A stretch of DNA of 64,000 nucleotides from Minisyncoccota bacterium (GCA_021734445.1 JAIPIY010000001.1:110814-174813); one strand, 5' to 3'; counted from the stretch's first letter, positions 38,953 to 57,788 are shown. Notes: generated by a model from the letters alone, not told the origin. Numbers and translations: made by a program.

Positions 38953-38972
38953 AGACCCCGGTGAAGGGGCCT
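38953..38972. terminator. Hairpin plus T-run immediately after the rplE stop (end of the ribosomal operon in this locus).
   Basis: AGACCCCGG tgaa GGGGCCT with flanking A/T runs. Confidence 0.5.
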
Positions 38973-38978
38973 TTTTTA

Positions 38979-39557
38979 TTATTTTTTCTTTTTAACAACT
39001 TTCTTTTTCTTTTCGTCTTCTTTTTTAAATGGAACACCTAGGTATTCAAAATATGCCATAGCTTCGGCTCGATTTTTTGCAGTAGTTCCCACAGTAATTG
39101 ATAGACCAAATACATCTTTGATTTCTTCGTCAGGGGTTTCTGGGAAGATAGTGTGTTCGCGAATACCCAATGTCATGTTTCCGATTTCGTCCACGCTTGA
39201 TCGATTTACTCCACGAAAGTCTTTTGTCCGAGGTAATGCAATATGTACTAATTTATCAAAAAAAGATTTCATTCGTGCTCCACGCAAGGTAACCATAACA
39301 CCAACAGGATCTCCCGTACGAATTTTAAATGTCGCAATAGATTTTTTTGCACCACGAATAGAACCTTTTTGACCAGTGATTTTTCCTAATCTATCAACAA
39401 CCAACTGATTGCGATTTTTGTCAGATTTCATACCACGACCTGTACCCACAGACACAACAATCTTTGTTACGTGTGGTACTTGTAATGCATTTTTATACCC
39501 AAATTTTTCTTTTAGGACAGCGAATGCGTTTTTTTGTTTTTGTGTTAATGATTCCAT
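38979..39557 (-). CDS. rplE: 50S ribosomal protein L5 with a Lys-rich C-terminal tail.
   Basis: Classic L5 sequence; ends KKEDEKKKKVVKKKK. Confidence 0.9.
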   Translation of the reverse strand: MESLTQKQKNAFAVLKEKFGYKNALQVPHVTKIVVSVGTGRGMKSDKNRNQLVVDRLGKITGQKGSIRGAKKSIATFKIRTGDPVGVMVTLRGARMKSFFDKLVHIALPRTKDFRGVNRSSVDEIGNMTLGIREHTIFPETPDEEIKDVFGLSITVGTTAKNRAEAMAYFEYLGVPFKKEDEKKKKVVKKKK

Positions 39558-39580
39558 ACTCTGTGCAAACGAATAAATTA

Positions 39581-39886
39581 CTAAATTTCTTGACCGCTTT
39601 TACGTGCAATACGAACGTATGAGTCTCCGACTTTTTTCTTTCCAATACGAGAAGCTTTTTTGGTTTTTGGATCAACGATCATTACATTTGAAACATGCAT
39701 TGGTTTTGCTATTTCAATAACGCCCCCATCTTTGTTCGCAGATGTTTTCTTTACATGTTTTTTCACCTTGTTAAGACCATCTACGATAACTTGATCTGTA
39801 GTAGGAAAAACTTTGGCAATAATACCTGTTTTGCCTTTTTCTTTACCTGTTCGCACTATTACATTGTCTCCTTTTTTTATTTTCAT
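39581..39886 (-). CDS. rplX: 50S ribosomal protein L24.
   Basis: MKIKKGDNVIVRTGKEKGKTGII KOW motif. Confidence 0.85.
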   Translation of the reverse strand: MKIKKGDNVIVRTGKEKGKTGIIAKVFPTTDQVIVDGLNKVKKHVKKTSANKDGGVIEIAKPMHVSNVMIVDPKTKKASRIGKKKVGDSYVRIARKSGQEI

Positions 39887-39891
39887 ATGCA

Positions 39892-40260
39892 TTAAATTAC
39901 TTCTGGTGCTGATGAAGCTATTTTTTGATATCCACGTTCAGCTATCTCTCTTGGGATAGGACCAAACACACGACCACCTCGAGGTTCTTTTTTTGCGTCA
40001 ATCAATACTACTGCATTGTCATCAAAACGAATATATGAACCATCTTTACGTCGAAAAGCTTTTCGTTGACGAACCACAACACCTTTTACTACGTCTTTTT
40101 TCTTTACTCCTTTTCGAGGTTCTGCAACCTTTACAGACAACACAACAACATCACCCAATTCAGCATATCGGCGCTTTGAACCACCAAGGATTTTAAAAAC
40201 CTTTCCTACTTTTCCTCCCGAGTTATCGGTTATTTTTACAACAGTTTCTACTTGAATCAT
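39892..40260 (-). CDS. rplN: 50S ribosomal protein L14.
   Basis: MIQVETVVKITDNSGGK ... ; 122 aa. Confidence 0.9.
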   Translation of the reverse strand: MIQVETVVKITDNSGGKVGKVFKILGGSKRRYAELGDVVVLSVKVAEPRKGVKKKDVVKGVVVRQRKAFRRKDGSYIRFDDNAVVLIDAKKEPRGGRVFGPIPREIAERGYQKIASSAPEVI

Positions 40261-40264
40261 AAGC

Positions 40265-40528
40265 CTATGCGTTTTTTACAATAAATTTTTTATCTTTCGA
40301 ATACGGTCGTGTTTCCTCGATAGAAACATTATCACCCACTTTGAAGGCATTTACCTCGTCATGAGCTTTGTATCGTTTATCGCGCTTGTAATACTTGCCA
40401 TATTTAGGGTGCTTCACAAACTGAGTTACTTTTACAACAACGGTTTTATCCATAGCATCAGAAACCACAACACCTTTGAATGTCTTTTTTAGTGGTTGTT
40501 TTAAATTTTCTTGTGTTTCTTTTTTCAT
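40265..40528 (-). CDS. rpsQ: 30S ribosomal protein S17.
   Basis: [16 protein letters not shown] ... 87 aa. Confidence 0.85.
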
Positions 40529-40547
40529 ATGTTGTAATAATAAGGTG

Positions 40548-40742
40548 TTATGCTTGTGTTTCTTTTTGTGATTGTTGCAATGTCAGTATCCGTGCAATAT
40601 CTTTCTTTAAATTTCGAATCGCTTTTGTATTTGATCCTTTGCTTCCTGATATATCAAATCGTATTTTTTGCAATTCTTTTCTTTTTTCGCCCAAGATTGC
40701 AACCAATTCTTCTTTTTTCTTTTTTAGTAGGTCTTTCATCAT
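40548..40742 (-). CDS. rpmC: 50S ribosomal protein L29.
   Basis: 64 aa, helical, [12 protein letters not shown]; position between L16 and S17. Confidence 0.75.
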
Positions 40743-40746
40743 AGGC

Positions 40747-41169
40747 TTATACTTCGCGAGAAACGATTTTTGTTTTTACTGGTAATTTTGCTCCTGCTTT
40801 TCGTAGTGCTTCGTAAGCAATTTCCTTACTTACTCCATCTACTTCAAACAAAATACGGCCTGGTCGAACTTCGAAACAAAATCCATCTGGATCTCCCTTA
40901 CCTTTACCCATGGGAACTTCGGCAGCTTTTGATGTAATTGGTCGATCTGGGAAGATACGAATCCAATAACGTCCAATTTTGTTCACCATACGTGTAACTG
41001 CTTTTCGGGCAGATTCGATCTGATTAGAACGAATACGCGCTGCAGTCATGGCTTTGAGACCATATGATCCATAAGCCAAGGTAACACCTCGTGTATCAGG
41101 AGTCAACAGTGCCACATCCTTTCGGTGTCTTTGCCATTTTCTGTGTTTTACTTTTTTTGGGAATAACAT
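40747..41169 (-). CDS. rplP: 50S ribosomal protein L16.
   Basis: [16 protein letters not shown] ... typical L16. Confidence 0.9.
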
Positions 41170-41178
41170 AAGCCAATA

Positions 41179-41850
41179 TTACGCGTTATCTTCTTTCTTT
41201 TCTAGAGAATCACCCTTATAAATCCAAACCTTGATTCCAATATCGCCGTATGGAAGATGAGCTTTTTCTGTCGTATAATCAACATCACCTCGTAAAAACT
41301 GCAGCGGGGTTGATCCTCGTTTGATCTTTTCAACTCGAGCCATTTCAGCACCACCTAATCTTCCTGATAAGGTCATTTTGAAACCTTGCACACCTCGGAC
41401 GCCCATAACTTTTTCAGCTGTTTGTTTCATTACCCGTCGAAATGGCATTCTTTTTTCCAAAGCTTCTGCCGACATTTGTGCAACAATAGCTGCATTAGCA
41501 TCAGGTTCTTTTACTTCGATGATATCAATATTGAATTCTTCTGGAATAGGAAGTTTTTTACGCTTCATTTCTTTCATGATATCGCTTTTTAGGCGAATCA
41601 TGTTTTCTCCACTACGTCCGATTACCATACCAGGACGAGATGTTGCAATAGCAACACGCATTGATTTTCGACTACGTTCAATATCAATAGAAGCAACATA
41701 ATTACCTCGAAGTCGTTTGTGTAAAAATTCTCGCAACAGAACATCACCTCGAAGAAAATCTCGGTATTTTTTACCTACTGCAAACCATCGTGATTTCCAA
41801 TCGCGAAGGATGATAAGACGTTGTGAATAAGGGTGTGATACTTGTGACAT
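41179..41850 (-). CDS. rpsC: 30S ribosomal protein S3.
   Basis: KH plus S3-C domains; 223 aa. Confidence 0.9.
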   Translation of the reverse strand: MSQVSHPYSQRLIILRDWKSRWFAVGKKYRDFLRGDVLLREFLHKRLRGNYVASIDIERSRKSMRVAIATSRPGMVIGRSGENMIRLKSDIMKEMKRKKLPIPEEFNIDIIEVKEPDANAAIVAQMSAEALEKRMPFRRVMKQTAEKVMGVRGVQGFKMTLSGRLGGAEMARVEKIKRGSTPLQFLRGDVDYTTEKAHLPYGDIGIKVWIYKGDSLEKKEDNA

Positions 41851-41855
41851 AAGCG

Positions 41856-42311
41856 TTATGATTCTTTGGTAACTTTTTTAGTAGTTTTTTTCGACGTTGT
41901 TTTCTTTGGTGCAGAAACTTTTTCTGGTTCTGGAGTTTCTTTCTTTGCTACCGGTGTTGATTTTTCTTTTGGTGTAACTGCATCAGAACCAGCAACGCCT
42001 AGAACCAACGTTACATGACTACTTCTTTTTAAAATTTGTGCTGCACGACCACGAGCACGAGCACGCCATCGTTTTATCACAGGTGCTTCGTTTACTTCGA
42101 TAGAAGAAACAATAAGACCACGAGATACACCGTTATTTTGAGCCGCATTTGCAACAGCTGATTGTAATAGTTTAATCAATGCAGAAGATGCTCGTTTTGA
42201 GACGAATGAAAGTTGTACCATTGCGTCATCTACTTTTTTACCTCGAATAAGGTCAGCGATAAGGCGGACTTTACGTGGTGATTGTCGATAATTTTTTAGA
42301 ATTGCTTTCAT
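41856..42311 (-). CDS. rplV: 50S ribosomal protein L22 with a Lys/Thr-rich C-terminal extension.
   Basis: MKAILKNYRQSPRKVRLIADLIRGKKV ... tail KKTTSKKTTKKVTKES. Confidence 0.85.
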   Translation of the reverse strand: MKAILKNYRQSPRKVRLIADLIRGKKVDDAMVQLSFVSKRASSALIKLLQSAVANAAQNNGVSRGLIVSSIEVNEAPVIKRWRARARGRAAQILKRSSHVTLVLGVAGSDAVTPKEKSTPVAKKETPEPEKVSAPKKTTSKKTTKKVTKES

Positions 42312-42314
42312 ATA

Positions 42315-42659
42315 CTATTTCTTTTTAGAATCCCCACTTGATTTTGCTGCTTTTGCTGCTGCGATATCTGATTCACGTTTCTTTTGTTCAAGTTCTTTTT
42401 GCATTTTACCTCCGTGTCGTACGAATACTTTTGAAGGTGCAAATTCTCCTAATCGGTGACCAATCATATCTTCTTCTACAAGAACTTCGATATGTTTTTT
42501 ACCGTTATGAACACCAAAAGTAAATCCAACCATTTCCGGAGAAATCATTGAACTACGTGCCCAAGTTTTAACAACCCCTGTTTCTAAGGGTTTTTTTCCT
42601 TCTATTTTTGATAGAAGTTTTGCATCAATATATGGTCCTTTTTTTAAGCTTCGTGACAT
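42315..42659 (-). CDS. rpsS: 30S ribosomal protein S19 with a Lys-rich C-terminal tail.
   Basis: [12 protein letters not shown] ... [10 protein letters not shown]. Start at the internal ATG (42657-42659 confirmed). Confidence 0.85.
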
Positions 42660-42772
42660 AATGTGTATCAAAATAAAGCAAGCTCTGTATGAGCTCGCAT
42701 GTGCATAGTATCAGACTGAAAGAAAATGTCAACAGATAACCTCTGGAAAACCAAAATAGACCACAGGAATAT

Positions 42773-45700
42773 CTATTCATCAATACTGTTATTAGATTCT
42801 GCACCACTATCCTGATCTGCATCACCGGATTCCGAAGAAGAATCTGATTCGGTATTCTGTTCAGGTGATGATTCTGTTGGCGCATCATCTTGCGTCGACT
42901 GGTCTTCTGATGGGAATTCGTCAATAGTTGCATCATTAGTGTCTCCATCAGCTTCTTCTTCAATAATTAGTTCAGATTCAGAAGAATCGTTATTCTCTTC
43001 TTCTCCTTCGTCATCAGGCAACTCATCAATAATTAGTTCATCTGTATCGCCAGAATCATTTTGATTATTATTATTTGATGTATAGATAACCTGTTTTGTA
43101 GATCCATTCATCACTGATTCTAATTCGTCCCCTGTTACGCAAAAATCAGTTCCATCAGATTTTGCAACACAAATTTCTTCTGTATAAATTTCTTTTGCAA
43201 AGAATTTTTGTATCCCATTCCCCGCATCAGCAAACCAATTTCGTATACGTGAAAGAAGTGTTTCATCTGAAAGAGTTTGAATATCCATGAGTTTCAAATC
43301 CATTTCTTTAATTGCTTGTGTAATAACTGCAGTCATCTGAGCATAGTACACTGCTTTGTATCCATCTTCTCTTTCAATTACTAATTCAGGGAAATATTGT
43401 TCTAAATCTTGAGCAATGAACCCGATACGAGTTTTATTTGATTGATCACTGTTGAGAGTATATGAAACTGTTCTTACATTCAAAAGTTTAGAAAGAACAC
43501 CTGAAGATAGGTCGTTAACATTTGATTTTAATTGTTCGTCAGATGCAATAGAAGCAGAATCATACCAAGCTAAAACACCTGAACCATTTGTACCTAACAC
43601 ATAATCCATAGCACCATCTGTTGTTGGCCAATACCAATTTGTAGTACTTGATCCATCATTGTTTGTTAATATCAAACCACTCTCTTGCGCCCTAATACCA
43701 GCAGAACTATTGAGTGAAGGATCTGACCAACTTAATTGTGCATAATTACTAGCAGTAACAATAGCAGAATCTGTATTTGCACCAGCATAACTCATTGATG
43801 CAAAACCACTGTACACACCAATATTCGAAGAAAGACCACCGGGTTCGTCATATCTTAATATGGAACCACTTGAGTCTAAGAGTAACCGCCGAATATCTCC
43901 GCCTCCAAAATCAACAATACCAGAAATTGTATCATTTAAATTATTAACACTAAAACGAGTATCATCTCCAGTATAAAAAATACTATCATCATTATTCCAT
44001 GTGAAAGAATTACTTTGTGCGAGTACTCCGCCATCACCTACAAATAAAATGCTATTTGCATTAGCACTCCCAATTGTATCACCAATAGAGAGAGACCCTC
44101 CTCCACCCGGCACCCAAGTCATTATTCCTTCATCAGTAGAAGAAAGGAAATATCCACTTGCTACTGGATATGCAGTTGGCAATGTATATGTATCTCCTTG
44201 GAATTTCCATTTTGTAATTACATCAGGAATTGCAAATTCGTTTGAAACCGCTATTGCACCTGCACCAAGAGCAATTGCGTCTGAAGCAAACCATTCACCT
44301 ATGTCTGCACCTGCTCCTATTATTGTATTACCAGAACCAGAAACAAGACCAGCTCCTGCCGAATATCCATATGCAGTATTCGAACTTCCAATAGTATTAT
44401 TATATCCAGAATTATAACCAGTAAACACGTTATTAGAGCCTTCTGTATTAAAGAAACCAGCAGAAGGGCCAGAAAAGATATTATTAGAACCTTCTGTGTT
44501 TGCATAGCCAGAATGAGATCCAGAGAAGATGTTACTAGAACCAGTGGTATTTGCATTACCGGCGTTAATACCAGAAAAAATGTTCTCTGTACCTGTAGTG
44601 TTTGAATAACCCGCGTTAGTACCTAAAAAGATGTTATTAGCACTAGATGTATTTGAATGCCCAGCATTATATCCTATAAATATATTATAGTCTCCCCCGG
44701 CATTACTGTATCCCGCTTCGTAACCTTGAAAAATATTGTGACTACCTGTTGTATTCGCAGTTCCTGTATAATTTCCCAAAAAAATATTATGTACTCCCGT
44801 ATCATTTAATACCCCTGCGCCAGTTCCTACAAAAAAGTTACCGACTCCGGTCATAGTCTCATTACCAGATCGATTGTCGAATAAGTTCGTACCGAGAAGT
44901 GTAAATAAACTACCCCCACCTCCCGCTGGAGTTTCCCATGTCAAATTTCCAGAACCATCATTCGTCAGAACTTCTCCTGCACCACCCTGAGCATCTGGCA
45001 TGATCCAGTTGACACCTCGCATATTGAACTGAGTATAAGCTGGTCCAATTAAAAATTGATTTGATGCAGTATTGGTTGCTTGATATCCTAAACCGATACT
45101 GTTCGAATATCCTCCGGTTGAAGTATCATCACCAATTAATATTGAAGTGCCGATACTAGTATTATCAACAGAATCATTCAGCCCTGCATTTTCACCAATA
45201 AAAATACTATTGGCAGCATTTACTGCAGAATTACCTGCATCATATCCAATGAAAATTGACCGAAATGCAGAATACGCGGAATTACCCGCATTATATCCAA
45301 TGAAATTTGACAAATGAGCCCCTTCGGCATATTGGCCTGAACCAGCTCCTAGAAAATTAGAACCATACGCATTTTCTGCCTGATATCCTGCATATTGCCC
45401 GAGGAAGTTTGAACTTGAAGCATTCGTTGCACTGTTCCCTGCATAGACACCTAAAAAGTTTGAGTTGTTTGCGTTAGTTGCATTTTGACCAGATTGTTGT
45501 CCAAAGAAATTGGAATAAGTAGCATCAGTTGCGCCAAGACCAGCAGACCTACCAAAGAAGTTTGAGAATGACGCATTTGTTGCATCACGACCTGTTTGAT
45601 ATCCCAAAAAAACTGAATCTTGTGCGTCAGAATTTAATCCTGCTTCTAATTCTCCACCTGAAAACAAACCAAATATATTAACAAGTGAAATTGCAGATGA

Positions 45701-46741
45701 TCCTCCACCAGAAACTGCCTCCCAAGTTAAATTCCCTGAACCATCATTAGTTAAAACTGTATTAGATCCACCTTGAGTATCTGTCCAATCATAGCTCACA
45801 CCATTAATATAATGTAAATTACCAACTCCAAGATTACCTGGAACACCAACAACTCCTAATGGGTATTGACCGTAAGAGCCTAAGACAGAAAAAAGTGGAC
45901 TATCTCCATTTCCAGAATCAAGAATATTAAAAGCACTAGCATTACTTGCCCAGAAATTCATTTGCCCTCCCGAGTTAATCTGAAACAAATTACCTCCGCT
46001 AGAATTTTGTATCAATAATGGATCTACATCTTCATATGTATCAGACGTTCCTGGAACTTCTGGTGTCCCTTCGGCAAATGTTAACATATAGAAATTATCT
46101 TCGGGTTGTCCTCCAGCATCTATAACAATAGGTGAGTGTCCTGTACCGCTTGCAAAGGTAACAAAGATACCAGAAAAATCAAGATCGACGAGAGGCATGG
46201 GAACACCCGGAGTAATTTCTATCACATCATCAGGAATATCTAATCCACCACAGTTTCCTCCATAGGCAATACGATCATTAGCAAACCCATTATCTGGTGC
46301 TGTATCCCAAATACCGAAAATTAACATACAACCTTCTGGTCCATCGTATTCTCCTGAGAATGTCGCGTCTTGAAGCCCCGCACCAGTATAGTCGACACTG
46401 GCAACAGAACCTGGTGTGCCCGGAATCGTAGGAGTCCCCGGTACAAGAACCTGACCTGTTTGAATGTGTAATTGCGCCAATGGGGAATCTATACCAATAC
46501 CAACCAACCCTTCATCAAAAAATATATCAGTATCATTTGATGCAAAAGACCAAAGAGAACCACCGTCACCAATATCAATAATACAATCTGGATCAGCTGG
46601 TCCTGTACATAAATTATCTCCTACGGGATCTAAAGTTTCTCCTGGTGTAATAGCTGAAACAACAATACCTCCGTAGAGAGTAAGAGCAATGAGAAGAAAG
46701 AAAAAAATGGCGTGTTTTTTTAATGTTGTGAGTAGTTGCAT
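42773..46741 (-). CDS. Giant secreted repeat protein, paralog 1 (~1320 aa). Signal peptide; Cys-containing N-terminal motif AITPGETLDP; two blocks of 17-residue Gly/Asn-rich tandem repeats; C-terminal peptidase S74 intramolecular-chaperone autoprocessing domain; polyacidic tail.
   Basis: S74 signature ASDEQLKSNV ... IGFIAQDLEQYFPELV ... AVYYAQMTAV encoded near 43300-43546. Repeats such as SNFLGVYAGNSATNASS x7 and NNIFLGTNAGYSNTTGT x9. Start set at MQLLTTLKK (46741); the alternative ATG is at 46759. Confidence 0.8.
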   Translation of the reverse strand: MQLLTTLKKHAIFFFLLIALTLYGGIVVSAITPGETLDPVGDNLCTGPADPDCIIDIGDGGSLWSFASNDTDIFFDEGLVGIGIDSPLAQLHIQTGQVLVPGTPTIPGTPGSVASVDYTGAGLQDATFSGEYDGPEGCMLIFGIWDTAPDNGFANDRIAYGGNCGGLDIPDDVIEITPGVPMPLVDLDFSGIFVTFASGTGHSPIVIDAGGQPEDNFYMLTFAEGTPEVPGTSDTYEDVDPLLIQNSSGGNLFQINSGGQMNFWASNASAFNILDSGNGDSPLFSVLGSYGQYPLGVVGVPGNLGVGNLHYINGVSYDWTDTQGGSNTVLTNDGSGNLTWEAVSGGGSSAISLVNIFGLFSGGELEAGLNSDAQDSVFLGYQTGRDATNASFSNFFGRSAGLGATDATYSNFFGQQSGQNATNANNSNFLGVYAGNSATNASSSNFLGQYAGYQAENAYGSNFLGAGSGQYAEGAHLSNFIGYNAGNSAYSAFRSIFIGYDAGNSAVNAANSIFIGENAGLNDSVDNTSIGTSILIGDDTSTGGYSNSIGLGYQATNTASNQFLIGPAYTQFNMRGVNWIMPDAQGGAGEVLTNDGSGNLTWETPAGGGGSLFTLLGTNLFDNRSGNETMTGVGNFFVGTGAGVLNDTGVHNIFLGNYTGTANTTGSHNIFQGYEAGYSNAGGDYNIFIGYNAGHSNTSSANNIFLGTNAGYSNTTGTENIFSGINAGNANTTGSSNIFSGSHSGYANTEGSNNIFSGPSAGFFNTEGSNNVFTGYNSGYNNTIGSSNTAYGYSAGAGLVSGSGNTIIGAGADIGEWFASDAIALGAGAIAVSNEFAIPDVITKWKFQGDTYTLPTAYPVASGYFLSSTDEGIMTWVPGGGGSLSIGDTIGSANANSILFVGDGGVLAQSNSFTWNNDDSIFYTGDDTRFSVNNLNDTISGIVDFGGGDIRRLLLDSSGSILRYDEPGGLSSNIGVYSGFASMSYAGANTDSAIVTASNYAQLSWSDPSLNSSAGIRAQESGLILTNNDGSSTTNWYWPTTDGAMDYVLGTNGSGVLAWYDSASIASDEQLKSNVNDLSSGVLSKLLNVRTVSYTLNSDQSNKTRIGFIAQDLEQYFPELVIEREDGYKAVYYAQMTAVITQAIKEMDLKLMDIQTLSDETLLSRIRNWFADAGNGIQKFFAKEIYTEEICVAKSDGTDFCVTGDELESVMNGSTKQVIYTSNNNNQNDSGDTDELIIDELPDDEGEEENNDSSESELIIEEEADGDTNDATIDEFPSEDQSTQDDAPTESSPEQNTESDSSSESGDADQDSGAESNNSIDE
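44290..44820 (-). repeat. Coding tandem repeat: 51-bp units encoding the 17-aa xNIFxGxxAGxxNTxGS repeats (about 9 units).
   Basis: Periodicity read from the translation. Coordinates are approximate. Confidence 0.6.
45150..45600 (-). repeat. Coding tandem repeat: 51-bp units encoding the 17-aa xSNFxGxxAGxxATNAx repeats (about 7 units).
   Basis: Verified by back-translating 45160-45300 to IGYNAGNSAYSAFRSIFIGYDAGNSAVNAANSIFIGENAG. Confidence 0.6.
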
Positions 46742-46767
46742 ATGGTTGTAGTATAGCATGTTACTAT

Positions 46768-46801
46768 AAAAAGAAAATCCCCTATAGGGGATTTTCTTTT
46801 T
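46768..46801. terminator. Perfect hairpin AAAAAGAAAATCCCC tata GGGGATTTTCTTTTT between the rplB stop and the giant gene 1 start.
   Basis: 15-bp stem. It ends 9 nt before ATG 46759. Confidence 0.6.
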
Positions 46802-46805
46802 ATAT

Positions 46806-47642
46806 TTATCGTTTACCAGTTTTTCTTCGAGAAACAATATTTTTATTTGAGTATTTTTTAGGAGTTCTTGTTTTAACACCGTATGCTAATTTCCCATGAC
46901 GAGTTTTTGGACCACGACGTAAACCGATACCTTGACGTCCTTCTCCACCTCCGTGCGGGTGATCAACAGGGTTCATCGCAGATCCACGCACAGTAGGTCG
47001 AATACCTAACCATCGTGAACGACCAGCTTTTCCAAGATTTCGTAATTTATGTGATTCATTTGAAACTTCTCCGATAGATGCATATGATTTATCAGATACT
47101 TTTCGAATTTCAGTTGATGGCATTTTCAAGTGAGCGTACCCACGATCATGTGCAACTACCTGAGCATAGGTTCCAGCAGAACGAGCTAATTTCGAACCTC
47201 CTTGCGGTTTTAATTCAATGTTATATACAAAAGTACCTACAGAGATTTTTTCCAACGGAAGACGGTTACCTACGGTTACCGGAGCATCTTCGCTAACGAT
47301 AAATGTATCACCTACTTTCATTTTTTGTGGAATAATAACATACCGTCGTTCTCCATCGTGGTAACATACCAAAGCGATAAATGATGAACGGTTGGGATCA
47401 TATTCAACAGTTTCTATTTTTGCAGGAATATTGTGTTTATTGTACAAGAAATCAATTTCTCGATATTTTCTTTTGTGTCCACCCCCTTTGTGTGGGGTAG
47501 TAATGCGTCCTTGATTATTTCTTCCCACATGTCGTTTACCACCTTTTGTCAAAGCTTTGTGTGGTGTACGTGTTGTTAATTCGCTGTAACTTACAGTAAC
47601 TAATTGTCGACGTGATGGGGTTGTTGGTTTATATTTTTTCAT
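46806..47642 (-). CDS. rplB: 50S ribosomal protein L2.
   Basis: 278 aa, GRNNQGRITTPHKGGGHKRKYR ... SAMNPVDHPHGGGEGR. Confidence 0.95.
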   Translation of the reverse strand: MKKYKPTTPSRRQLVTVSYSELTTRTPHKALTKGGKRHVGRNNQGRITTPHKGGGHKRKYREIDFLYNKHNIPAKIETVEYDPNRSSFIALVCYHDGERRYVIIPQKMKVGDTFIVSEDAPVTVGNRLPLEKISVGTFVYNIELKPQGGSKLARSAGTYAQVVAHDRGYAHLKMPSTEIRKVSDKSYASIGEVSNESHKLRNLGKAGRSRWLGIRPTVRGSAMNPVDHPHGGGEGRQGIGLRRGPKTRHGKLAYGVKTRTPKKYSNKNIVSRRKTGKR

Positions 47643-47650
47643 ACCTATGG

Positions 47651-49314: not shown

Positions 49315-49336
49315 AAGCAGGACATTACTGAATGTA

Positions 49337-49687
49337 TTACATCATTTTGACATCAATTTCAACACCTGAAGGCAAATTTACGTTCGTGAGTGATTCGATC
49401 ACTTTTGGTGATGGGTTGATAATATCGATCAAGCGTTTATGTACTCGTATTTCAAATTGCTCTCGTGCATTTTTGTATACGAACGATGCTCGGTTTACAG
49501 TATACTTCTTTATTTCTGTAGGAAGTGGAACTGGGCCACGCACTTCTGCGTCATGACGCAAAGCAATATCCATAATTTGTTTTACAGAAGTATCAAGAAT
49601 TTTATTCTCGTACGCTCGAACACGAATGCGCAAACGTACTGCAGTTTCTTGTGAATCTCCTTTTTTTGTTTTTGATACTGTCTTCAT
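49337..49687 (-). CDS. rpsJ: 30S ribosomal protein S10.
   Basis: RIRVRAYENKILDTS ... PLPTEIKKYTVNRASFVYK. Confidence 0.9.
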   Translation of the reverse strand: MKTVSKTKKGDSQETAVRLRIRVRAYENKILDTSVKQIMDIALRHDAEVRGPVPLPTEIKKYTVNRASFVYKNAREQFEIRVHKRLIDIINPSPKVIESLTNVNLPSGVEIDVKMM

Positions 49688-49720
49688 ATGACGCTTGTTA
49701 GATATCGTTAGATCAAAATA

Positions 49721-50920
49721 TTAAGCAATAATTTTTGTACAAACACCGGCACCAACGGTTCGACCTCCTTCACGAATAGCGAAGCGTTGTTGTTCTTCTA
49801 GGGCAACTGGCACTAATAGTTTCACTTTCAATTTAACTGTATCTCCTGGCATAACCATTTCTGCACCTTCTGGAAGTGTTACTTCACCAGTTACGTCAGT
49901 TGTACGGATATAAAATTGAGGTTTATATCCTTTAAAGAAAGGAGTGTGTCGTCCACCTTCATCTTTTTTCAAGATGTACACTTCACATTCGAATTCTGTA
50001 TGAGGAGTCAAAGTACCTGGTTTTGACAATACTTGTCCACGTGTGATGTCTTCTTTTTTAAGACCTCGCAATAGAATACCAGCGTTGTCTCCAGCCATAC
50101 CTTCTTGTAATTGTTTATTGAACATTTCAACTCCAGTTACGGTAGTTTTTTGTGTAGCAGCCATTCCAACGATTTCGATTTCTTCACCAACTTTGATGAT
50201 TCCTCGTTCGATTTTACCAGTTACTACGGTTCCACGACCTTCGATAGAGAAGATATCTTCTACAGGCATCAAGAAAGGCTTGTCAGTTTCACGAACTGGC
50301 ATTGGAATATAAGAATCCAAAGTTTCAGCCAATTCGATAATTTTCTTAGCCCATTCATCATCCGCAGATGTTGCATCAAGAGCTTTCAAACCTGAACCTT
50401 TAATAACAGGAGCATTAGCACCATCAAATTCGTATTTTGTAAGCAATTCACGAACCTCTTCTTCAACTAATTCGATCAAATCTGGATCGTCAACCATATC
50501 ACATTTGTTCAAGAAAACGATGATTTTAGGTACACCAACCTGTCGAGCCAACAAAATGTGTTCTCGAGTTTGTGGCATTACACCATCTGTTGCAGCAACT
50601 ACGATGATAGCACCGTCCATCTGAGCCGCACCAGTAATCATGTTTTTAATGTAGTCAGCGTGACCAGGAGCGTCAATGTGAGCATAGTGACGATTTGGTG
50701 TTTCGTATTCATTATGAGAAAGCGCGATAGTAATTCCACGTGCTTTTTCTTCAGGAGCCGAGTCGATTTGACTTACGTCCTTGATTTTTGATGAATAACC
50801 ATTACCTGCAAGGTTAAGAACGTGCAGGATAGCCGCTGTTAATGTTGTTTTTCCGTGGTCAACGTGTCCAATAGTACCTACGTTAACGTGTGGTTTTGAT
50901 CGATCAAATATTTCTGCCAT
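49721..50920 (-). CDS. tuf: Elongation factor Tu.
   Basis: [27 protein letters not shown] ... Start at ATG 50918-50920 confirmed. Confidence 0.97.
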
Positions 50921-51063
50921 GATAATTTGCACTCAGAGGTTCAAAGAGAACATGAGTTAATTAATGAATAATTATAATAAAAACGATTTTTTCGTTTGAG
51001 GTTCGCTTCTTGGATTACAAAAAGTAACACAATGTGCGATAAAACGCATCTTATACTAAAATG

Positions 51064-51096
51064 AAAAAAGAGTCAAGGGGTCTTGACTCTTTTTTG
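51064..51096. terminator. Bidirectional hairpin AGAGTCAAG gggt CTTGACTCT with A-run/T-run flanks, between the 223-aa hypothetical gene and tuf.
   Basis: 9-bp perfect stem. Confidence 0.6.
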
Positions 51097-51114
51097 CATA
51101 GTATTTAGTTTAAA

Positions 51115-51786
51115 TTAATAACCCCTACCACCATTTGGTAATTTGTTTGCATTAAGATGTGGATTTTGATGTGTCGTTGACTGATTCGTTACACCAGCAG
51201 AAGCTTTGCGCCCTTTCTCATTTCCAACTACAGTTAAAACAGTACCTGTTAGGTTTAAGGCACTTCCAGTAATTAATGCAGCATTTTGAACTTTTGGATC
51301 TTTGGAAGCTATACCAATTGCAGTTGCTATTCCACCAGCTATCTGAGTATACGTTCCAGCGGTTTTTAAGTCTTGACCAGTTTTAAGGTCTTTTTGTCTT
51401 TTTTGTTCTGCTGTCCATTGTTCTGGTGTCATTTGTACCGTATTACCAGAAGTATTAGCAGTAGACCCAGCAAATTGCCAAGAGCCATTCACCTTTACCC
51501 ACTGACCCTGAGATTGTGCTGAAGCATCTTCAATATTCCCCATAAGAGTCAATAAACCCATAAATACAGGCAAAACGATTTTTGCTCGTGATGCTAATTC
51601 TGGTGAGAATTTCAAGTTTTCAACATTTTCTCCCAATGAATCAAATTGTGATTGTAATTTTCCAAACAAAGATTGCATACTTTCTAATTTACCACCAATA
51701 AAATCTTGGATTGTTTCCATCTTATTTATAGGTATATTTTCTTGAGCTGTCTTTGGAGTTTGTTTTTTAAAGGGGTTTTCAAACAT
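51115..51786 (-). CDS. Hypothetical protein inserted between fusA and tuf (central hydrophobic segment, Gly-rich C-terminal half).
   Basis: 223-aa ORF with its own downstream terminator. Confidence 0.5.
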   Translation of the reverse strand: MFENPFKKQTPKTAQENIPINKMETIQDFIGGKLESMQSLFGKLQSQFDSLGENVENLKFSPELASRAKIVLPVFMGLLTLMGNIEDASAQSQGQWVKVNGSWQFAGSTANTSGNTVQMTPEQWTAEQKRQKDLKTGQDLKTAGTYTQIAGGIATAIGIASKDPKVQNAALITGSALNLTGTVLTVVGNEKGRKASAGVTNQSTTHQNPHLNANKLPNGGRGY

Positions 51787-51807
51787 GGTAGTGTAGATAT
51801 TAAATTA

Positions 51808-51951
51808 TTAAACAGATTGTTCAGCTATTTCTTCTGATACTTGATCGAGAACGCTGGTAACTTCGTTAATAAATTGTTCTTTGTCTTGTTCAGATACGTT
51901 TTCTCCTGATGCAATACGGTCTGCAAGAGCTTGTAATTCTTCGTTATTCAT
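51808..51951 (-). CDS. Small acidic 47-aa ORF (MNNEELQALADRIASGENVSEQDKEQFINEVTSVLDQVSEEIAEQSV), immediately upstream of the 223-aa gene.
   Basis: Translated by hand. It is below the ORF-track size cut-off and is supported only by its position in a tight gene pair. Confidence 0.3.
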   Translation of the reverse strand: MNNEELQALADRIASGENVSEQDKEQFINEVTSVLDQVSEEIAEQSV

Positions 51952-52017
51952 GGTCTAATTTTAGCACACATTATACTCAAAAGTCAAGTCTTTTTATTCA
52001 GCTGCTGTGTATAACAC

Positions 52018-52046
52018 AAAAATCGCCTGTATTACAGACGATTTTT
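52018..52046. terminator. Hairpin AAAAATCG ... CGATTTTT after the fusA stop.
   Basis: 8-bp stem with a 13-nt loop; a weak terminator. Confidence 0.3.
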
Positions 52047-52066
52047 GGTAGATATAAAATTTTCTT

Positions 52067-54220
52067 TTATCTTCGTCCAGCTCGAGATCCTGCAATATCA
52101 GCAGCAATATTCGATGGAACAACATCATATCGAGAAAATTCCATAGTAAATGAACCACGCCCTGATGTCATAGATCGAAGACTGTTCATATATCCGAACA
52201 TTTCTGACAATGGAACGGTTGCGCGAATAGCCTGAACCATACCGCGATCTTCTGAACCTTCGATTAATCCTCGCTTAGAAGAAATATCTCCTGTTACATC
52301 ACCAACGAAATCTGGCGGAACTACTACTTCGACACGCATCATAGGTTCGAGAATTACGGGACGAGCTTGTTTTGCAGCATCTTGAAATGCCTGAGAAGCA
52401 GCGATTTTAAAGGCAATTTCAGAAGAGTCTACATCATGATATGAACCATCATACAATTCAACAGAAATATCGGTCATTTGATATCCAGCAGAAACCCCTC
52501 GTTGCATTCCTTCTTTGATACCTTTTTCAACAGCAGGAATATATTCCAATGGAACAACCCCTCCTTTGATATTGTTAATGAATTCAAATCCTTCACTTCG
52601 TTTTACGTTCTTTGGTATTTTTTCCATATCAACATCTTTTTCAAGAGGTTTGATTCTGATTTTTACGTGTCCATATTGACCACGACCACCTGATTGTTTT
52701 ACATATTTATGTTCAACATCGGCATTTCCTGTAATAGTTTCTCGATACGCAACCTGTGGTTTTCCAACTGTTGCTTCTACACCAAATTCTCGCTTCATAC
52801 GATCAACCAAAATTTCAAGATGTAATTCACCCATACCTGCAATAATAGTATCCATAGTCTCTGTATCTGTTGAAACTTTGAATGTTGGATCTTCAGCAGA
52901 CAATCGAGATAATGCCATACCCATTTTTTCTTGATCTGCCTTTGTTTTTGGTTCAATCTTTAATTGTACTACTGGTTCTGGAAAATCAATACCTTCTAGT
53001 GTTACTACATGATCTTCATCACACAATGTATCTCCCGTAGTTACATCTTTTAATCCAACCGCAGCAGCAATTTCACCAGCAAATACTTGTTTTACTTCTT
53101 CTCGTTCGTTTGCATGCATACGCAAAATACGTCCGATACGTTCACGTTGTTCTGTACGAGGATTGTACACATATGAACCCGCTTCAAGAATACCAGAATA
53201 TACACGGATATAGGTTAACTGACCAACAAATGGATCTGTTTGTAATTTAAATGCTAATGCAGCAAAAGGCGCAGTATCGTCAGATGGACGTTCTACTTCT
53301 TCTTTTGTTTCTGGGTTTACCCCTTTGATTGGTGGAACATCAATAGGTGATGGAAGATAATCAATAACACCATCCAATACCAACTGTACTCCCTTGTTTT
53401 TTAGTGCTGTTCCACAGAACACAGGAACCAACTGGTTTGCAATAACAGCTTTTCGAGCAGTAGTTTTCAATTCATCCACAGTTATTTCTCCACCTTCAAG
53501 ATAACGATTCATTAATGCTTCGTCATTTTCAACGATTTTTTCAACCAATTCAGAACGATACATATCAGATTCTTCTTTGTATTCTGCAGGAATTTCGTGT
53601 TCTACAATTTGAGAACCCATTTCACCTTCAAAGGTGTATGCCTTCATGCGAATAAAATCAATTACTCCTTTCATGTTTTCTTCTTCTCCCCAAGGCATTT
53701 GAAAACGGACAGCATTTTGGGTAAGACGTTGAAGAATGGATTTGTACGCTTTTTCAAAAGAAGCTCCTGTTCGGTCTAATTTGTTAATAAAACACATACG
53801 AGGAACTTTGTATTTGTCTGCTTGACGCCAAACAGTTTCAGACTGAGGCTCCACACCAGCAACACCATCAAACACAGTTACCGCACCATCCAGAACCTTT
53901 AACGACCGTTCTACCTCTACAGTAAAGTCCACGTGACCAGGGGTGTCAATAATATTGAAACGGTGTTCTCGGTCTTTTGTTCCTGAAGTATCATATGAGG
54001 GTTTCCAGAAACAAGTAGTAGCAGCAGAAGTAATAGTAATACCTCGCTCTTGTTCTTGTTCCATCCAGTCCATGACAGCTGCACCGTCATGCACTTCACC
54101 AATTTTATGTGATACACCTGTGTAAAATAGTACACGTTCTGATGTTGTTGTTTTACCCGCATCGATGTGGGCAATAATTCCAAAGTTTCTTACTTTTTGT
54201 AGTGGATAATCTCGCTTCAT
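52067..54220 (-). CDS. fusA: Elongation factor G.
   Basis: 717 aa; [24 protein letters not shown] ... full five-domain EF-G. Confidence 0.97.
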
Positions 54221-54369
54221 AATGTATGTTCTGTTTTATGTGTTATGTTGTGTGAATAAAAAGAGCGTTCCAGCCGATACAGCGTGCATCAGAAAAGATA
54301 TCATCTTTTTGGAGCGCCCAGATAGGGTTACTATACTATATTTAGATTTTTTTGCAATCGTGTGCAAAA

Positions 54370-56787
54370 TTATTCAATACTGTCCGATTGCTCTTCTGGT
54401 GTTTCAACTGTTTCTTCTGGATCTTCGGATTCAATTTCATCTACTATTTCAGATTGTTCAACCTCATCTTCTGATTCTAAAACTTCTAGGATTTCAATTG
54501 TTGATTCTTCTTCGATCAGAGGAATATCTTCATCTGATATAGATTCTTCGTCTACAACAACATTTTCATCATTAATTATCACATCTCCTTCTTCCAAATC
54601 ATCAGAATCAGTAATAACACCTGTATGAATTAATCGTTTTAACATTTCAGCTTCTTCTTTGTCAAAACACACATTCTCTACACACAACTCTTCGGTCGTA
54701 ATCTTCTTTGCAAAGATGTTTTGAATACCGTTACCTACGTCAGCAAGGAAATCTTTAGCTAAAGTAGTTAATAATGCTAATGAAAATCCACCAGATGCAA
54801 TGGTTTGAGATTCTAAGATGGAAACCTTGAGATCTAACTCTCTAACCGCCTCTACTAATATTGGAGCCATTTGTGCATAATACACGGATTTAAATCCTTC
54901 TTCATTGGTTGCAACCAGCTCTGGGAAATATTGTTCAAGATTTTGAGCAAGAAAACCAATTTGCGGATGTGTTTCGGGTTTGTCATTCCAGTTATAGGTA
55001 ACGGTACGGAGCTGAAGAACTTTATCAAGTATGTTTGACATATCTACAATATTTGTTTTTAATCTTTCGTCAGATGAACATGCAATACCAGTGCCTGTAG
55101 TAATAATACAGTTAGTAGTAGCTGCTTGAATACGTACAGATTCAATTGAACCTGTAGCCAGGGTTGAACCAATCATGAATTGATTTGTAGCAGTGTTGGT
55201 TGCCCCTTTACCAATGGCAATGGAGTTAGAAAATCCTCCAGTAGAGGTTTCATCTCCAATGAGAATAGATGTGAAGTTTGCTGTTGAATTATTTAGTGCA
55301 AGATCTCCTGCTTGAGATCCCGCACTATTTCCAATGAAAATTGAGTTATTTGAATTAGCAGAACCAGCAACACCCACACTAAAAAAACCTGCTTTGGAAC
55401 CAATAAAAGTTGAGTTATAAGCATTAGTCGCACCTTGACCAGCTGAATTACCAAAGAAATTAGAATGCGCAGCATTAGTTGCGCTATTTCCAGCTGTGCG
55501 ACCCAAAAAATTAGAATTACTAGCATTGGTTGCACTATCACCTGCTGAGGCACCAAGGAAGTTTGAACCATTCGCGTTTGAAGCGTTTATACCTGCATTT
55601 GCACCGAAGAAGTTTGAAGAAGAAGCACTTGTTGCACTAGCTCCAGCACCAACTCCAAAGAAGTTTGATTGATATGCGTTTGTTGCATCTTGTCCTGCAC
55701 CATTACCTAGGAAGTTTGACTCAGTAGCATCTACTGCATTTTGACCAGCACCACCTCCCAAGAAGTTTACTGAGTAAACATTTGTTGCACCATTACCAGC
55801 ATTATCTCCTAAGATTATATTTCCACCACCACCTATTGTTCTTCCTTGCCCTGTACCAGAAAGTCCTGATGAATATAGAGTGTCTCCAGATGCACCAATC
55901 GTAATTGATGAAGACCCCCCAGAAACAGTAGCCCAAGAAAGTTGACCATTGCCATCTGTTTGTAATACCTGACCAAGAGCTCCATCAGCTATAGGAAAAG
56001 TATACCAATCTCCACTGAAATCAAAAGTAATACCACTATCATCCAAAGATATACTTTGGGCTCCCGTAATAGTATCTACATATAATTGTGCATATTCACT
56101 GGAAAGAGATAATTCTGATCTATCATTAGCGCCTGTATCTTCATATCTAAAAGAAGCCTCTGTTGCATCAAGTTCCATTGTTGATTCTTTATTGATTACC
56201 AGGTCAGAAAATTGAGATGCAAAACTTGTATCAGTGACATTAAATCCTGTTCGGATATTTCCTCCATCACTCAAAAGAAAGAGTGAAGCTCTTTGAGGAG
56301 CAAATAACATTGTAGAGCTTTCACCACTAGCACCTCCATAACCTACAATTGTCACATGCTCACCAAGACCAAATGCCGTCCCATCACCAACCGCAACAAA
56401 ATTTGATTCGTCAGTAGTCTCATCAACATGAACCATATTAGCACCAGGAATTGTACCATTTGCACTAATTCCCATAATAGTTAAAAAATCAGGAGCCACA
56501 CTATCAGACACCATCATAATTTCACCATTATCAAAATCATAAGTAAAACCTTCAGCAGTTGAAAGTTCACCTGCATTATTTAAAAATAAAACACTATTTG
56601 GATCTAATCCATCATACGGATTAATAGCACATCCAGAATCAGTTGGTCCAGAACACACATTGTTGTGTGTATTTACCGGATCCAATGTTTCCCCTGGCGC
56701 AATAGCAAACACAGCAAATGCAGTAAATGCGATAGAAGAGATGAGTGCACCCAGTATAGACACCTTGTAGTGTGTAGTATAAGACAT
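54370..56787 (-). CDS. Giant secreted repeat protein, paralog 2 (~805 aa). Signal peptide; AIAPGETLDP/CSGPTDSGC N-terminal motif; 17-aa xSNFxGxxAGxxATNAx repeats; peptidase S74 intramolecular-chaperone domain (CSSDERLKTNI); polyacidic tail.
   Basis: S74 signature SSDERLKTNIVDMSNILDKVLQLRTVTYNW ... IGFLAQNLEQYFPELV ... SVYYAQMAP encoded around 55053-55080. Start set at MSYTTHYK (56787); the alternative ATG is at 56805. Confidence 0.8.
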   Translation of the reverse strand: MSYTTHYKVSILGALISSIAFTAFAVFAIAPGETLDPVNTHNNVCSGPTDSGCAINPYDGLDPNSVLFLNNAGELSTAEGFTYDFDNGEIMMVSDSVAPDFLTIMGISANGTIPGANMVHVDETTDESNFVAVGDGTAFGLGEHVTIVGYGGASGESSTMLFAPQRASLFLLSDGGNIRTGFNVTDTSFASQFSDLVINKESTMELDATEASFRYEDTGANDRSELSLSSEYAQLYVDTITGAQSISLDDSGITFDFSGDWYTFPIADGALGQVLQTDGNGQLSWATVSGGSSSITIGASGDTLYSSGLSGTGQGRTIGGGGNIILGDNAGNGATNVYSVNFLGGGAGQNAVDATESNFLGNGAGQDATNAYQSNFFGVGAGASATSASSSNFFGANAGINASNANGSNFLGASAGDSATNASNSNFLGRTAGNSATNAAHSNFFGNSAGQGATNAYNSTFIGSKAGFFSVGVAGSANSNNSIFIGNSAGSQAGDLALNNSTANFTSILIGDETSTGGFSNSIAIGKGATNTATNQFMIGSTLATGSIESVRIQAATTNCIITTGTGIACSSDERLKTNIVDMSNILDKVLQLRTVTYNWNDKPETHPQIGFLAQNLEQYFPELVATNEEGFKSVYYAQMAPILVEAVRELDLKVSILESQTIASGGFSLALLTTLAKDFLADVGNGIQNIFAKKITTEELCVENVCFDKEEAEMLKRLIHTGVITDSDDLEEGDVIINDENVVVDEESISDEDIPLIEEESTIEILEVLESEDEVEQSEIVDEIESEDPEETVETPEEQSDSIE
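55370..55800 (-). repeat. Coding tandem repeat: 51-bp units encoding the 17-aa SNF/GAG/ATNA repeats (about 8 units).
   Basis: Back-translation of 55381-55440 gives GQGATNAYNSTFIGSKAGFF. Confidence 0.6.
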
Positions 56788-56816
56788 ATGAGAATAGTAT
56801 AGCATGATATCCAAAT

Positions 56817-56845
56817 AAAAAAATCCCCACTCGGGGGATTTTTTT
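56817..56845. terminator. Perfect hairpin AAAAAAATCCCC actcg GGGGATTTTTTT between the rpsG stop and the giant gene 2 start.
   Basis: 12-bp stem; same GGGGAT core as the hairpin at 46768. Confidence 0.6.
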
Positions 56846-56864
56846 ATTTGGAGTATTAATTTTC

Positions 56865-57335
56865 TTACCAAGCAAAGTGTGCAAATGCTTTGTTTGCTTC
56901 TGCCATTTTCAAAGTGTTTTCTTTTCGTTTTACTGCTTCACCTTCGTTTTTACTAGCCAAGATAATTTCATCAGACAATTTGATGTACATTGGTTGCCCT
57001 TTTTTCTTTCGAGCAGCTTCCATGATCCATCGCATAGCCAAAGCCAATCGTCGTTCTGGTCGAACTTCTCGTGGAACTTGGTAGTTTGCACCCCCAACAC
57101 GTCGTGATCGAACTTCTAGTGCAGGGCCTGCATTTTTAAAAGCCAAATCAACAACTTCTAGTGGGTTTGGGTTTTCAGATTCTTTTTTGATTCGTTCCAA
57201 AGCTTGATAGACAACAGCACGAGCTGTTTCTTTTCGCCCATCCAACATAACATAGTTAATAAGACGACCTATTTTCTGAGAATTATAGATTGAATCTGGC
57301 CCTGGAATATTTCGATTTTTTACTGGTCTTCGCAT
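56865..57335 (-). CDS. rpsG: 30S ribosomal protein S7.
   Basis: MRRPVKNRNIPGPDSIYNSQKIGRLINYVMLDGRKETARAVVYQALERI. Confidence 0.9.
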   Translation of the reverse strand: MRRPVKNRNIPGPDSIYNSQKIGRLINYVMLDGRKETARAVVYQALERIKKESENPNPLEVVDLAFKNAGPALEVRSRRVGGANYQVPREVRPERRLALAMRWIMEAARKKKGQPMYIKLSDEIILASKNEGEAVKRKENTLKMAEANKAFAHFAW

Positions 57336-57371
57336 AATGAGAAACTAAATAAGAGATAATGAATAGATTAA

Positions 57372-57788
57372 TTATGATTCTTTTGGTCGTTTACGTCCGT
57401 ATTTACTACGAGATTGTCGTCGTTTGTCTACACCCTGAGCATCCAACACACCACGAACGATGTGATATCGTACCCCGATCAAGTCTTTTACACGACCTCC
57501 TCGCAACATTACTACCGAGTGTTCCTGCAGGTTGTGACCCATACCTGGGATGTATGCGGTAACTTCCATACCATTCGTAAGACGTACACGAGCGATTTTT
57601 CGCAAAGCCGAGTTAGGTTTTTTAGGGGTTGTTGTAGATACTTTTGTACACACACCTCGTTTAAAAGGAGAGTTGTGATATACAGGCTTGTTTTTAAGCG
57701 TATTAAAAGAATACGTCATAGCAACAGCCTTTGTTTTTTTAGAGACTTTTGTTCTTGGTTTTCTTCGTAATTGATTGATTGTTGACAT
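57372..57788 (-). CDS. rpsL: 30S ribosomal protein S12.
   Basis: [12 protein letters not shown] ... [22 protein letters not shown] 57786-57788 confirmed. Confidence 0.95.

Follow-up and report, generated by a model that had tools for sequence, protein, structure and literature searches.

The locus considered here occupies positions 38,953 to 57,788 of a 64,000-nucleotide (nt) stretch of DNA from a Minisyncoccota bacterium (GCA_021734445.1 JAIPIY010000001.1:110814-174813), referred to at its full length as the window, and it constitutes the ribosomal gene cluster (str-S10-proximal-spc) of an ultra-small, uncultured Paceibacteria bacterium (Patescibacteria, or candidate phyla radiation, CPR). 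All genes of the cluster lie on the minus strand, as do the other cluster features located below, and they run in the order rpsL-rpsG-(G1)-fusA-(s47-p223)-tuf-rpsJ-rplC-rplD-rplW-rplB-(G2)-rpsS-rplV-rpsC-rplP-rpmC-rpsQ-rplN-rplX-rplE, in which the names in brackets denote three inserts. The canonical str-S10-spc order from rpsL to rplE is kept and its contiguity is broken inside the cluster. A preliminary description of this DNA had proposed both the synteny, which is borne out by NCBIfam equivalogs and Pfam, and the inserts (a giant gene between rpsG and fusA, a gene pair between fusA and tuf, and a second giant gene between rplB and rpsS), all of which are present and co-oriented with the cluster. 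NCBIfam equivalogs name S12, S7, EF-G, EF-Tu, S10, L3, L4, L23, L2, S3, S19, L22 and L5, and L16, L29, S17, L14 and L24 are named from the precomputed Pfam annotation of an identical public contig. The cluster comprises rpsL (S12; 57372-57788; TIGR00981 equivalog, 199 bits), whose start is placed at Met10 of the open reading frame (ORF) in agreement with the 138-residue calls of relatives; rpsG (S7; 56865-57335; TIGR01029, 178 bits), with an identical protein on nine other contigs; fusA (EF-G; 52067-54220; TIGR00484, 1107 bits); tuf (EF-Tu; 49721-50920; TIGR00485, 694 bits); the rpsJ-rplC-rplD-rplW-rplB block (46806-49687; NCBIfam equivalogs), with 92-96% nt identity to contigs L083, L170 and L172 of related strains; and the block from rpsS to rplE (38979-42659; NCBIfam and Pfam).

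The two giant genes, G1 (54370-56787, start ATG at 56787; MCF7831440.1) and G2 (42773-46741, start ATG at 46741; MCF7831430.1), encode paralogous proteins of 805 and 1322 residues that end in an S74 intramolecular chaperone/protease domain and are predicted to be N-terminally membrane-anchored and phage-tail-fibre-like with a beta-solenoid shaft. Their existence had been correctly recognized beforehand and their starts had been set too far upstream: an 833-residue ORF for G1 is an over-extension, G2 is not a 1368-residue gene overlapping rplB, and the corrected starts of both agree with the NCBI gene calls. The C-terminal domain is Peptidase_S74 (PF13884), matched at 64.3 bits in G1 and 54.3 bits in G2 against a gathering cut-off of 22 bits, and the SDxxxK motif, as defined in PMC10769870, is found as S572-DERL-K577 (SDERLK) in G1 and S1067-DEQL-K1072 (SDEQLK) in G2, its serine and aspartate being at least 90% conserved in an alignment of 50 sequences. 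At the N-terminus of both proteins lies a hydrophobic stretch of some 22 residues, next to it a PGxTLDPxCxPG module shared by the whole family, and tandem 17-residue SNFxGxxAGxxATNAxx repeats then lead into the S74 domain. In an AlphaFold2 monomer of G1 the repeats form a regular beta-solenoid (residues 320-470, predicted local distance difference test, pLDDT, above 90) and the S74 domain is confidently modelled; the best Foldseek matches are chains of 3gw6, the endosialidase intramolecular chaperone, with probabilities mostly of 0.8-0.9. Only G1 and G2 gave matches to PHROG families, of the tail-fibre, tail-spike, baseplate and virion-structural kinds; both match tail-fibre and tail-spike families (G1 down to 1e-25), and none is found for the s47 and p223 products or for the 208-residue protein encoded beyond rplE. 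G1 additionally matches the PDB tail fibre 8jov (1.5e-4), and a PDB sequence search with G2 gave no match. The family counts at least 430 homologues, the named ones being 'tail fiber domain-containing protein' in metagenome-assembled genomes (MAGs) of Paceibacteria or unclassified bacteria, and NCBI, whose entries for 'Candidatus Pacebacteria bacterium' (locus tags K9M36_, from a 252-kb contig) the window's proteins match exactly, gives the same name to G1 and G2 as well as to a third paralog that lies outside the window. The label of trimeric autotransporter adhesin, which the Joint Genome Institute (JGI) attaches to some homologues, was rejected, as there is no YadA anchor or Hep_Hag match, PF13884 is the only Pfam match at E up to 0.001, and the C-terminus consists of the S74 domain and an acidic tail. 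This Asp/Glu/Ser-rich tail of low complexity covers 80-100 residues after the S74 chaperone in G1 (54370-54650) and G2 (42773-43070), and it would be released along with the chaperone. By analogy, we take G1 and G2 to be variable fibres of the cell surface that would attach to cells or substrates. In the literature on Patescibacteria, searched for tail fibres, intramolecular chaperones and leaderless mRNA, no description of S74 fibres was found.

The third insert consists of s47 (51808-51951), encoding an acidic orphan protein of 47 residues that has no family match and is 94% identical in L083-L085, and p223 (51115-51786; MCF7831437.1), likewise without a family match. As previously described, the pair has a terminator of its own (51064-51095). 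In an alignment of p223, the hydrophobic segment SPELASRAKIVLPVF proves invariant, and the C-terminal part is Gly/Thr-rich; p223 is probably a membrane or secreted protein. Its distribution is restricted to this clade: only eight homologues occur among 5.8 billion clusters, at 44-69% identity, or 44-100% with p223 itself included, and the two with a known context (the L172 contig and L083-L085) both belong here.

Because stable intrinsic terminators are predicted after rpsG, fusA, p223, rplB and rplE, and promoters of the sigma-70 type before G1, fusA, s47, tuf, G2 and rpsS, the cluster is predicted to consist of about seven back-to-back transcription units rather than one operon, with the accessory genes G1, G2 and s47-p223 occupying terminator-to-promoter gaps. 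The palindromic intrinsic terminator after rpsG (56810-56852) has a 19-bp stem (-26.2 kcal/mol, z = -7.2), and a similar hairpin is found in strain L083, which lacks G1. The hairpins after fusA (52014-52049; -17.8 kcal/mol, z = -6.1) and p223 (51064-51095; -18.5 kcal/mol, z = -9.0, overlapping the predicted tuf promoter at 51048-51076), the palindromic terminator after rplB (46765-46804; -23.6 kcal/mol, z = -6.1) and the terminator after rplE that ends the ribosomal cluster (38948-38977; -16.7 kcal/mol, z = -4.0) complete the set. The last of these had been noticed earlier at 38953-38972; the hairpin is real and its full span is slightly longer, and in L170, L172, L174 and L175 its loop varies with the stem conserved. 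On the promoter side, G1 and G2 share the same extended -10 element, TGCTATACT (56796-56804 and 46750-46758, respectively), each with the ATG 8 nt downstream, and both genes may therefore begin as leaderless mRNAs. The predicted fusA promoter (TTGCAA-16-TATAGT; 54330-54357) is conserved in strains without G1; that of s47-p223 (TTGACT-18-TAAAAT with TG; 51958-51987) places the ATG 6 nt after the -10 element; and the rpsS block is preceded by TTGACA-16-TACTAT with TG together with a 5' leader hairpin (-13.1 kcal/mol) and U-tract (42678-42732). Since no terminator of their own was found for G1 and G2, transcription may read through G1 into fusA and through G2 into rpsS.

The rpsS leader (42678-42698, minus strand) has its stable hairpin and U-tract just past the predicted promoter, and the 125 nt before the rpsS start are identical in L170 and L173, where nearby coding DNA differs by 2-8%, and show five differences in L172. 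The hairpin could be an attenuator or an autoregulatory site; an Rfam search of 38.5-58.1 kb at E up to 1 gave no ribosomal-protein leader or other RNA family, two chance matches apart. Across the window, a Shine-Dalgarno-like motif lies within 25 nt upstream in only one of 64 genes, and an extended -10 element (TGnTAnnnT) ends 6-9 nt before the ATG in nine genes (examples at 8845, 16888-17811, 21662-22417, 35619-36242, 57923-59914 and 59924-60604). These two counts suggest that Shine-Dalgarno-independent translation and leaderless first genes are the norm here.

Beyond rplE, the terminator hairpin is followed by a non-ribosomal gene for a 208-residue protein (38105-38731), and then by convergent genes for DsbB and a thioredoxin-like protein. 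The 208-residue protein has an N-terminal hydrophobic segment and is predicted to be membrane-anchored, gives a weak, sub-threshold match to a glucosaminidase family (PF01832), has its own predicted promoter (38840-38868), and is 97% identical and in the same position in L170-L175. The abrupt end of the spc operon and its replacement by an unrelated gene had been part of the preliminary description, and both stand: with queries from relatives, tblastn found no match to rpsN, rpsH, rplF, rplR, rpsE, rplO, secY or adk anywhere in the 64-kb window, and in L170-L175 the 8-10 kb that follow rplE do not contain the genes from rpsN to secY either. One candidate for the location of the distal spc genes, P0178, was rejected as belonging to another genome. 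C-terminal extensions are present on S19, L22 and L5, as had been reported; the L19 listed with them is encoded outside the cluster, at 7597-8109. An Ala/Lys-rich C-terminal extension of uS19 and larger uL22 and bL19 have already been published for Parcubacteria (Tsurumaki et al. 2022, PMC9297842). The closest relatives of rplC among GTDB genomes are Campbellbacteria/Paceibacterota MAGs at 55-66% identity. The genes of the window are small and densely packed, with type IV pilus genes among them, a gene content typical of Patescibacteria; PilM and PilO-like type IV pilus assembly genes lie at 10938-13102.

Exact-protein look-ups with S7 and L14 led to the close strains; a metagenome scan with L5 returned relatives at no more than 65% identity, the close strains not being among them. 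In L083-L089, rpsG is followed after 207 nt by fusA and G1 is absent. L083 aligns in two segments, to window positions 57871-56810 and 54359-51507, which are separated by about 10 nt, and from this the G1 cassette, made up of promoter and ORF, is placed at about 54360-56809, between the rpsG terminator and the conserved fusA promoter. At the site between rplB and rpsS, it is the position that is conserved and the sequence that is hypervariable: L170, L172 and L173 carry giant S74 genes of 1099 and 1362 residues there, and comparison of the window with L172 or L170 gives 92-98% nt identity for the ribosomal flanks and 58-74%, in an alignment with many gaps, for the giant gene, whose last 600 nt or so return to 82-88%. 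Segments are moreover shuffled, as residues 625-855 of G2 match residues 395-626 of the L172 protein, and it is G1, not G2, that the first 250 residues of the L170 and L172 proteins match. The first codons, the promoter and the preceding terminator loop of G1 are likewise closer to the rplB-rpsS allele of L170 and L172 than to G2, and this resemblance suggests cassette movement or recombination between junctions with similar AAAATCCCC…GGGGATTTT terminators, such that fibre genes may move and recombine between cluster junctions. A recent duplication of G2 into G1 was rejected, given 31-42% identity in the aligned segments and the nearer resemblance of the G1 5' end to the L170/L172 allele. Strain-specific differences are also found away from the giant genes. 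Two blocks of the window (28517-32581 and 33263-36272) are islands absent from the otherwise collinear L170 and L173 contigs, the first holding an ORF of 1144 residues (28953-32387) that matches nothing in Pfam. At the cluster's edge, L083-L089 carry an extra gene of 223 or 224 residues without a Pfam match (8717-9388 in L083) between a CarboxypepD_reg gene and rpsL, where the window has only about 60 nt (57871-57933), a second presence/absence difference.

When some 110 Patescibacteria loci were mapped and gaps above 600 nt were counted, these proved to be concentrated at a few junctions, namely the four that are interrupted in the window, rplB/rpsS (22/52), fusA/tuf (13/27), rplE/rpsN (18/73) and rpsG/fusA (4/17), and in addition rpsJ/rplC (8/51), tuf/rpsJ (3/46) and rplW/rplB (3/48); among the others, fifteen had no such gap and two had one each (heterogeneity among junctions: chi-square 347, 23 degrees of freedom). 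The link after rplE is also lost in L006, L102 and L141, and that before rpsS in L004, L027, L104 and L141. The cargo amounts to 112 ORFs falling into 104 clusters, 79 in the orientation of the cluster and 33 opposite to it, and includes FG-GAP/DUF285 and NHL proteins, a Schlafen-type helicase, a restriction-modification methylase, AcrB, an M3 peptidase and IS200 transposases. Such diversity points to many independent events and not to one element, and a single dedicated mobile element was rejected on the same ground. Close S74 homologues also occupy other places in or beside this cluster: in L178 one lies at fusA/tuf, and in L179 one is found upstream of rpsL, at a distance of two genes. L105 (5044-6756 and 10622-15061) and L142 (1516-2130 and 11613-12851) each carry mutually homologous cargo at two junctions, which echoes the situation of G1 and G2. 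In L178 (JGI; 5229-7747 and 14126-14717), the gene calls break fusA and tuf into several fragments and join a GTP_EFTU segment to the giant S74 gene, which looks like assembly frameshift errors rather than biology. In the literature on ribosomal-operon insertions and gene order in CPR and Parcubacteria, no description of intra-operon hot spots in CPR was found.

Taking these observations together, we consider it probable that this is a split ribosomal cluster in which terminator-promoter gaps host S74 fibre paralogs and an orphan pair, from which rpsN-secY has become detached, and whose junctions recur across the group with almost entirely unrelated cargo; it is read as a lineage-specific variant of known cluster erosion that carries fibres resembling Bdellovibrio MAT proteins. 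Mechanistically, the junctions would be permissive sites at which cargo arrives or the cluster breaks without disrupting co-translated blocks, no dedicated mobile element being needed. Several points weigh against this account. The promoter scan returned 41 sites compared with 62 in shuffled sequence, so that individual promoter calls rest on position and conservation. Gain of G1 here and its precise loss in the L083 lineage are not separable, gain being favoured because rpsG adjoins fusA in the outgroups L009 and L179. The junction statistics ignore phylogenetic non-independence, and the junction rule is not absolute, since L183, a later locus, has cargo at rplC/rplD, which had been scored 0/56. 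More distant fibre homologues lie outside ribosomal clusters, so that any link to the cluster is local to this clade. As to the proteins, the AlphaFold2 monomer has a mean pLDDT of 65 with its N-terminal domain unmodelled, and the Foldseek matches to 3gw6 are weak (E about 0.1, low TM-scores). The distal spc genes of the organism were not located, an L6 query from the closest relative giving 7964 near-equidistant matches, none on known contigs. Finally, the junction between rpsG and G1 is supported by the window's assembly alone.

This last point bears on the possibility that the arrangement is an assembly artefact, with a chimeric contig joined wrongly at the borders of the giant genes and beyond rplE, and an unbroken S10-spc operon in the real genome, a concern already raised in the preliminary description. 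Short-read assemblies do break at this locus: Logan contigs of SRR12088350 match window positions 28979-46794 and 46775-50042 at 100% and are interrupted only inside the palindromic terminator after rplB, where L081 and L082 end or begin at 46775-46794; in addition, L083 and L084 end inside the giant gene and L173 begins 55 nt before it. On the other hand, L081 crosses from G2 through rpsS to rplE and 10 kb beyond at 100% identity, and a further Logan contig, L184, matches 50760-54745 at 99.98% and spans the 3' end of G1, fusA, s47, p223 and tuf. From other samples, L170 (a 186-kb JGI contig), L172 (NCBI GCA_964489785.1) and L173-L175, with flanks at 90-96% nt identity, have the layout tuf to rplB, giant S74 gene of 1099 or 1362 residues, rpsS to rplE, gene of 208 or 231 residues, DsbB; the same giant gene after rplB and the same break after rplE are thus seen in at least five other samples and through three pipelines. 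L083-L085 repeat the order fusA, 47 residues, 219 residues, tuf, and have a giant gene after rplB. The junctions also carry well-formed terminators and promoters that are conserved between strains. Misassembly was accordingly rejected, as independent assemblies repeat the arrangement at every junction but that between rpsG and G1, and a chimeric contig is regarded as highly improbable. The cluster arrangement is real and the initial interpretation is supported, with three additions: the cluster is predicted no longer to be one operon, the insert positions and the break recur in the clade, and the extensions are a known Parcubacteria trait.

If the arrangement is genuine, G1 and G2 might still be tail-fibre genes left by phages or transposons that had integrated into the cluster. 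Their matches to PHROG tail-fibre and tail-spike families and, for G1, to a PDB tail fibre, the tail-fibre name given by NCBI, the presence or absence of G1 between close lineages and the two cargo ORFs of related loci that are IS200-type transposases would all fit a prophage or mobile-element remnant. However, neither G1 nor G2 has an integrase, transposase, capsid, terminase or other phage gene as a neighbour, the adjoining genes being ribosomal; no target-site duplications, inverted repeats or recombinase genes were seen at the borders of G1; a hydrophobic anchor and the PGxTLDPxCxPG module take the place of a virion-attachment end; and the composition fits the genome. The family itself has at least 430 members, and the four distant relatives whose context was examined sit in ordinary chromosomal settings. 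Such an origin is regarded as unlikely. Somewhat less improbable, yet still doubtful, is a selected coupling, by which fibre genes are kept in the cluster for growth-tied expression or their leaderless promoters boost fusA and rpsS-rplE by read-through. Both fibre genes share the orientation of the cluster and have no terminator themselves, the G2 site is kept in all close relatives while the gene turns over, close homologues occupy three different cluster junctions and a further one is found upstream of rpsL at a distance of two genes, one distant homologue comes after rpoBC-dnaG-rpoD, and the 79 to 33 excess of co-oriented cargo in relatives points the same way. Yet fusA and rpsS retain conserved promoters of their own, the L083 lineage manages without G1, cargo at these junctions in other lineages is functionally miscellaneous (AcrB, a restriction-modification methylase, a peptidase, a helicase), other S74 homologues lie elsewhere, and the genomes are small and housekeeping-rich, so that adjacency is cheap. 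A more speculative extension, likewise doubtful, is that the terminator-promoter junctions of this Paceibacteria clade serve as a cassette-exchange platform for hypervariable host-recognition fibres. Leaderless, tail-fibre-like S74 adhesin genes would be copied and recombined between junctions through similar terminator-promoter heads, and read-through into fusA and rpsS-rplE would couple their transcription to ribosome synthesis. If this were true, those surface genes of the cell that vary most would reside among its most conserved genes and be expressed together with them.

For the split cluster with permissive junctions, which we prefer, known systems offer partial parallels. The closest functional precedent for G1 and G2 would be the S74 subgroup of the Bdellovibrio bacteriovorus MAT fibres, surface trimers that recognize prey and carry an SDxxxK chaperone/protease (Caulton et al. 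2024, PMC10769870), all MATs sharing a signal peptide followed by a beta-rich domain that is conserved and about 130 residues long. In both cases the proteins are cellular and carry a C-terminal S74 domain with SDxxxK; before it come a signal for export or anchoring at the N-terminus, then a conserved module and a long beta-helical fibre, the signal and the fibre being predictions for G1 and G2. In both, too, several mosaic paralogs occur per genome, and the organism lives by contact with other cells. In contrast to the MATs, G1 and G2 have no sequence match to the solved MAT fragments in the PDB, possess the 17-residue repeat and an acidic tail of about 80-100 residues, come from a Patescibacterium and lie inside a ribosomal gene cluster, and are known here from sequence. 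As in Bdellovibrio, the fibres may form trimers, shed their chaperone by cleavage and serve an episymbiont as variable adhesins on its surface. Phage fibres and spikes (K1F endosialidase, 3GW6; T5 pb1, 4UW8; PDB 8jov) share PF13884, the cleavage motif, the beta-helical shaft predicted for G1 and G2, and modular recombination of shaft and tip, whereas the N-terminus of G1 and G2 is a predicted membrane anchor and not a virion-attachment domain, phage gene context is lacking, and the family is chromosomal and widespread in Paceibacteria. With regard to the cluster, multigene insertions that separate operons of the conserved translation cluster have been described in Gammaproteobacteria and Bacilli (PMC6735719; Brandis 2021, PMC8046335). 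The likeness is that a highly conserved cluster of translation genes is split by lineage-specific multigene insertions; the difference is that those separate operons, whereas here they fall inside str (rpsG/fusA and fusA/tuf), S10 (rplB/rpsS) and spc (rplE/rpsN), and that the distal spc half is detached in this organism. The work on CPR ribosomal proteins (PMC9297842) reports the same kind of uS19, uL22 and bL19 enlargement, but a search of its text gives no 'gene order', and 'ribosomal protein operon' appears only in its reference list.

The apparent blocks in Paceibacteria, namely rpsL-rpsG, fusA, tuf-rpsJ, rplC-rplB, rpsS-rplE and rpsN onward, differ from the str, S10 and spc borders of Escherichia coli, and the junction map provides a testable picture of how the cluster is organized in this group. 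Phylogenomics and binning of CPR genomes commonly use a syntenic block of 16 ribosomal proteins on one scaffold. In this clade that block is split at rplB/rpsS and rplE/rpsN, and short-read assemblies tend to break at the palindromic terminators or within the repeat-rich giant gene, so that such genomes can be lost or mis-concatenated. The S74 fibres, being strain-variable, mosaic and multi-copy in parallel with the Bdellovibrio MATs, are plausible candidates for the host attachment of uncultured episymbionts, and they could serve as markers of strain or host range.

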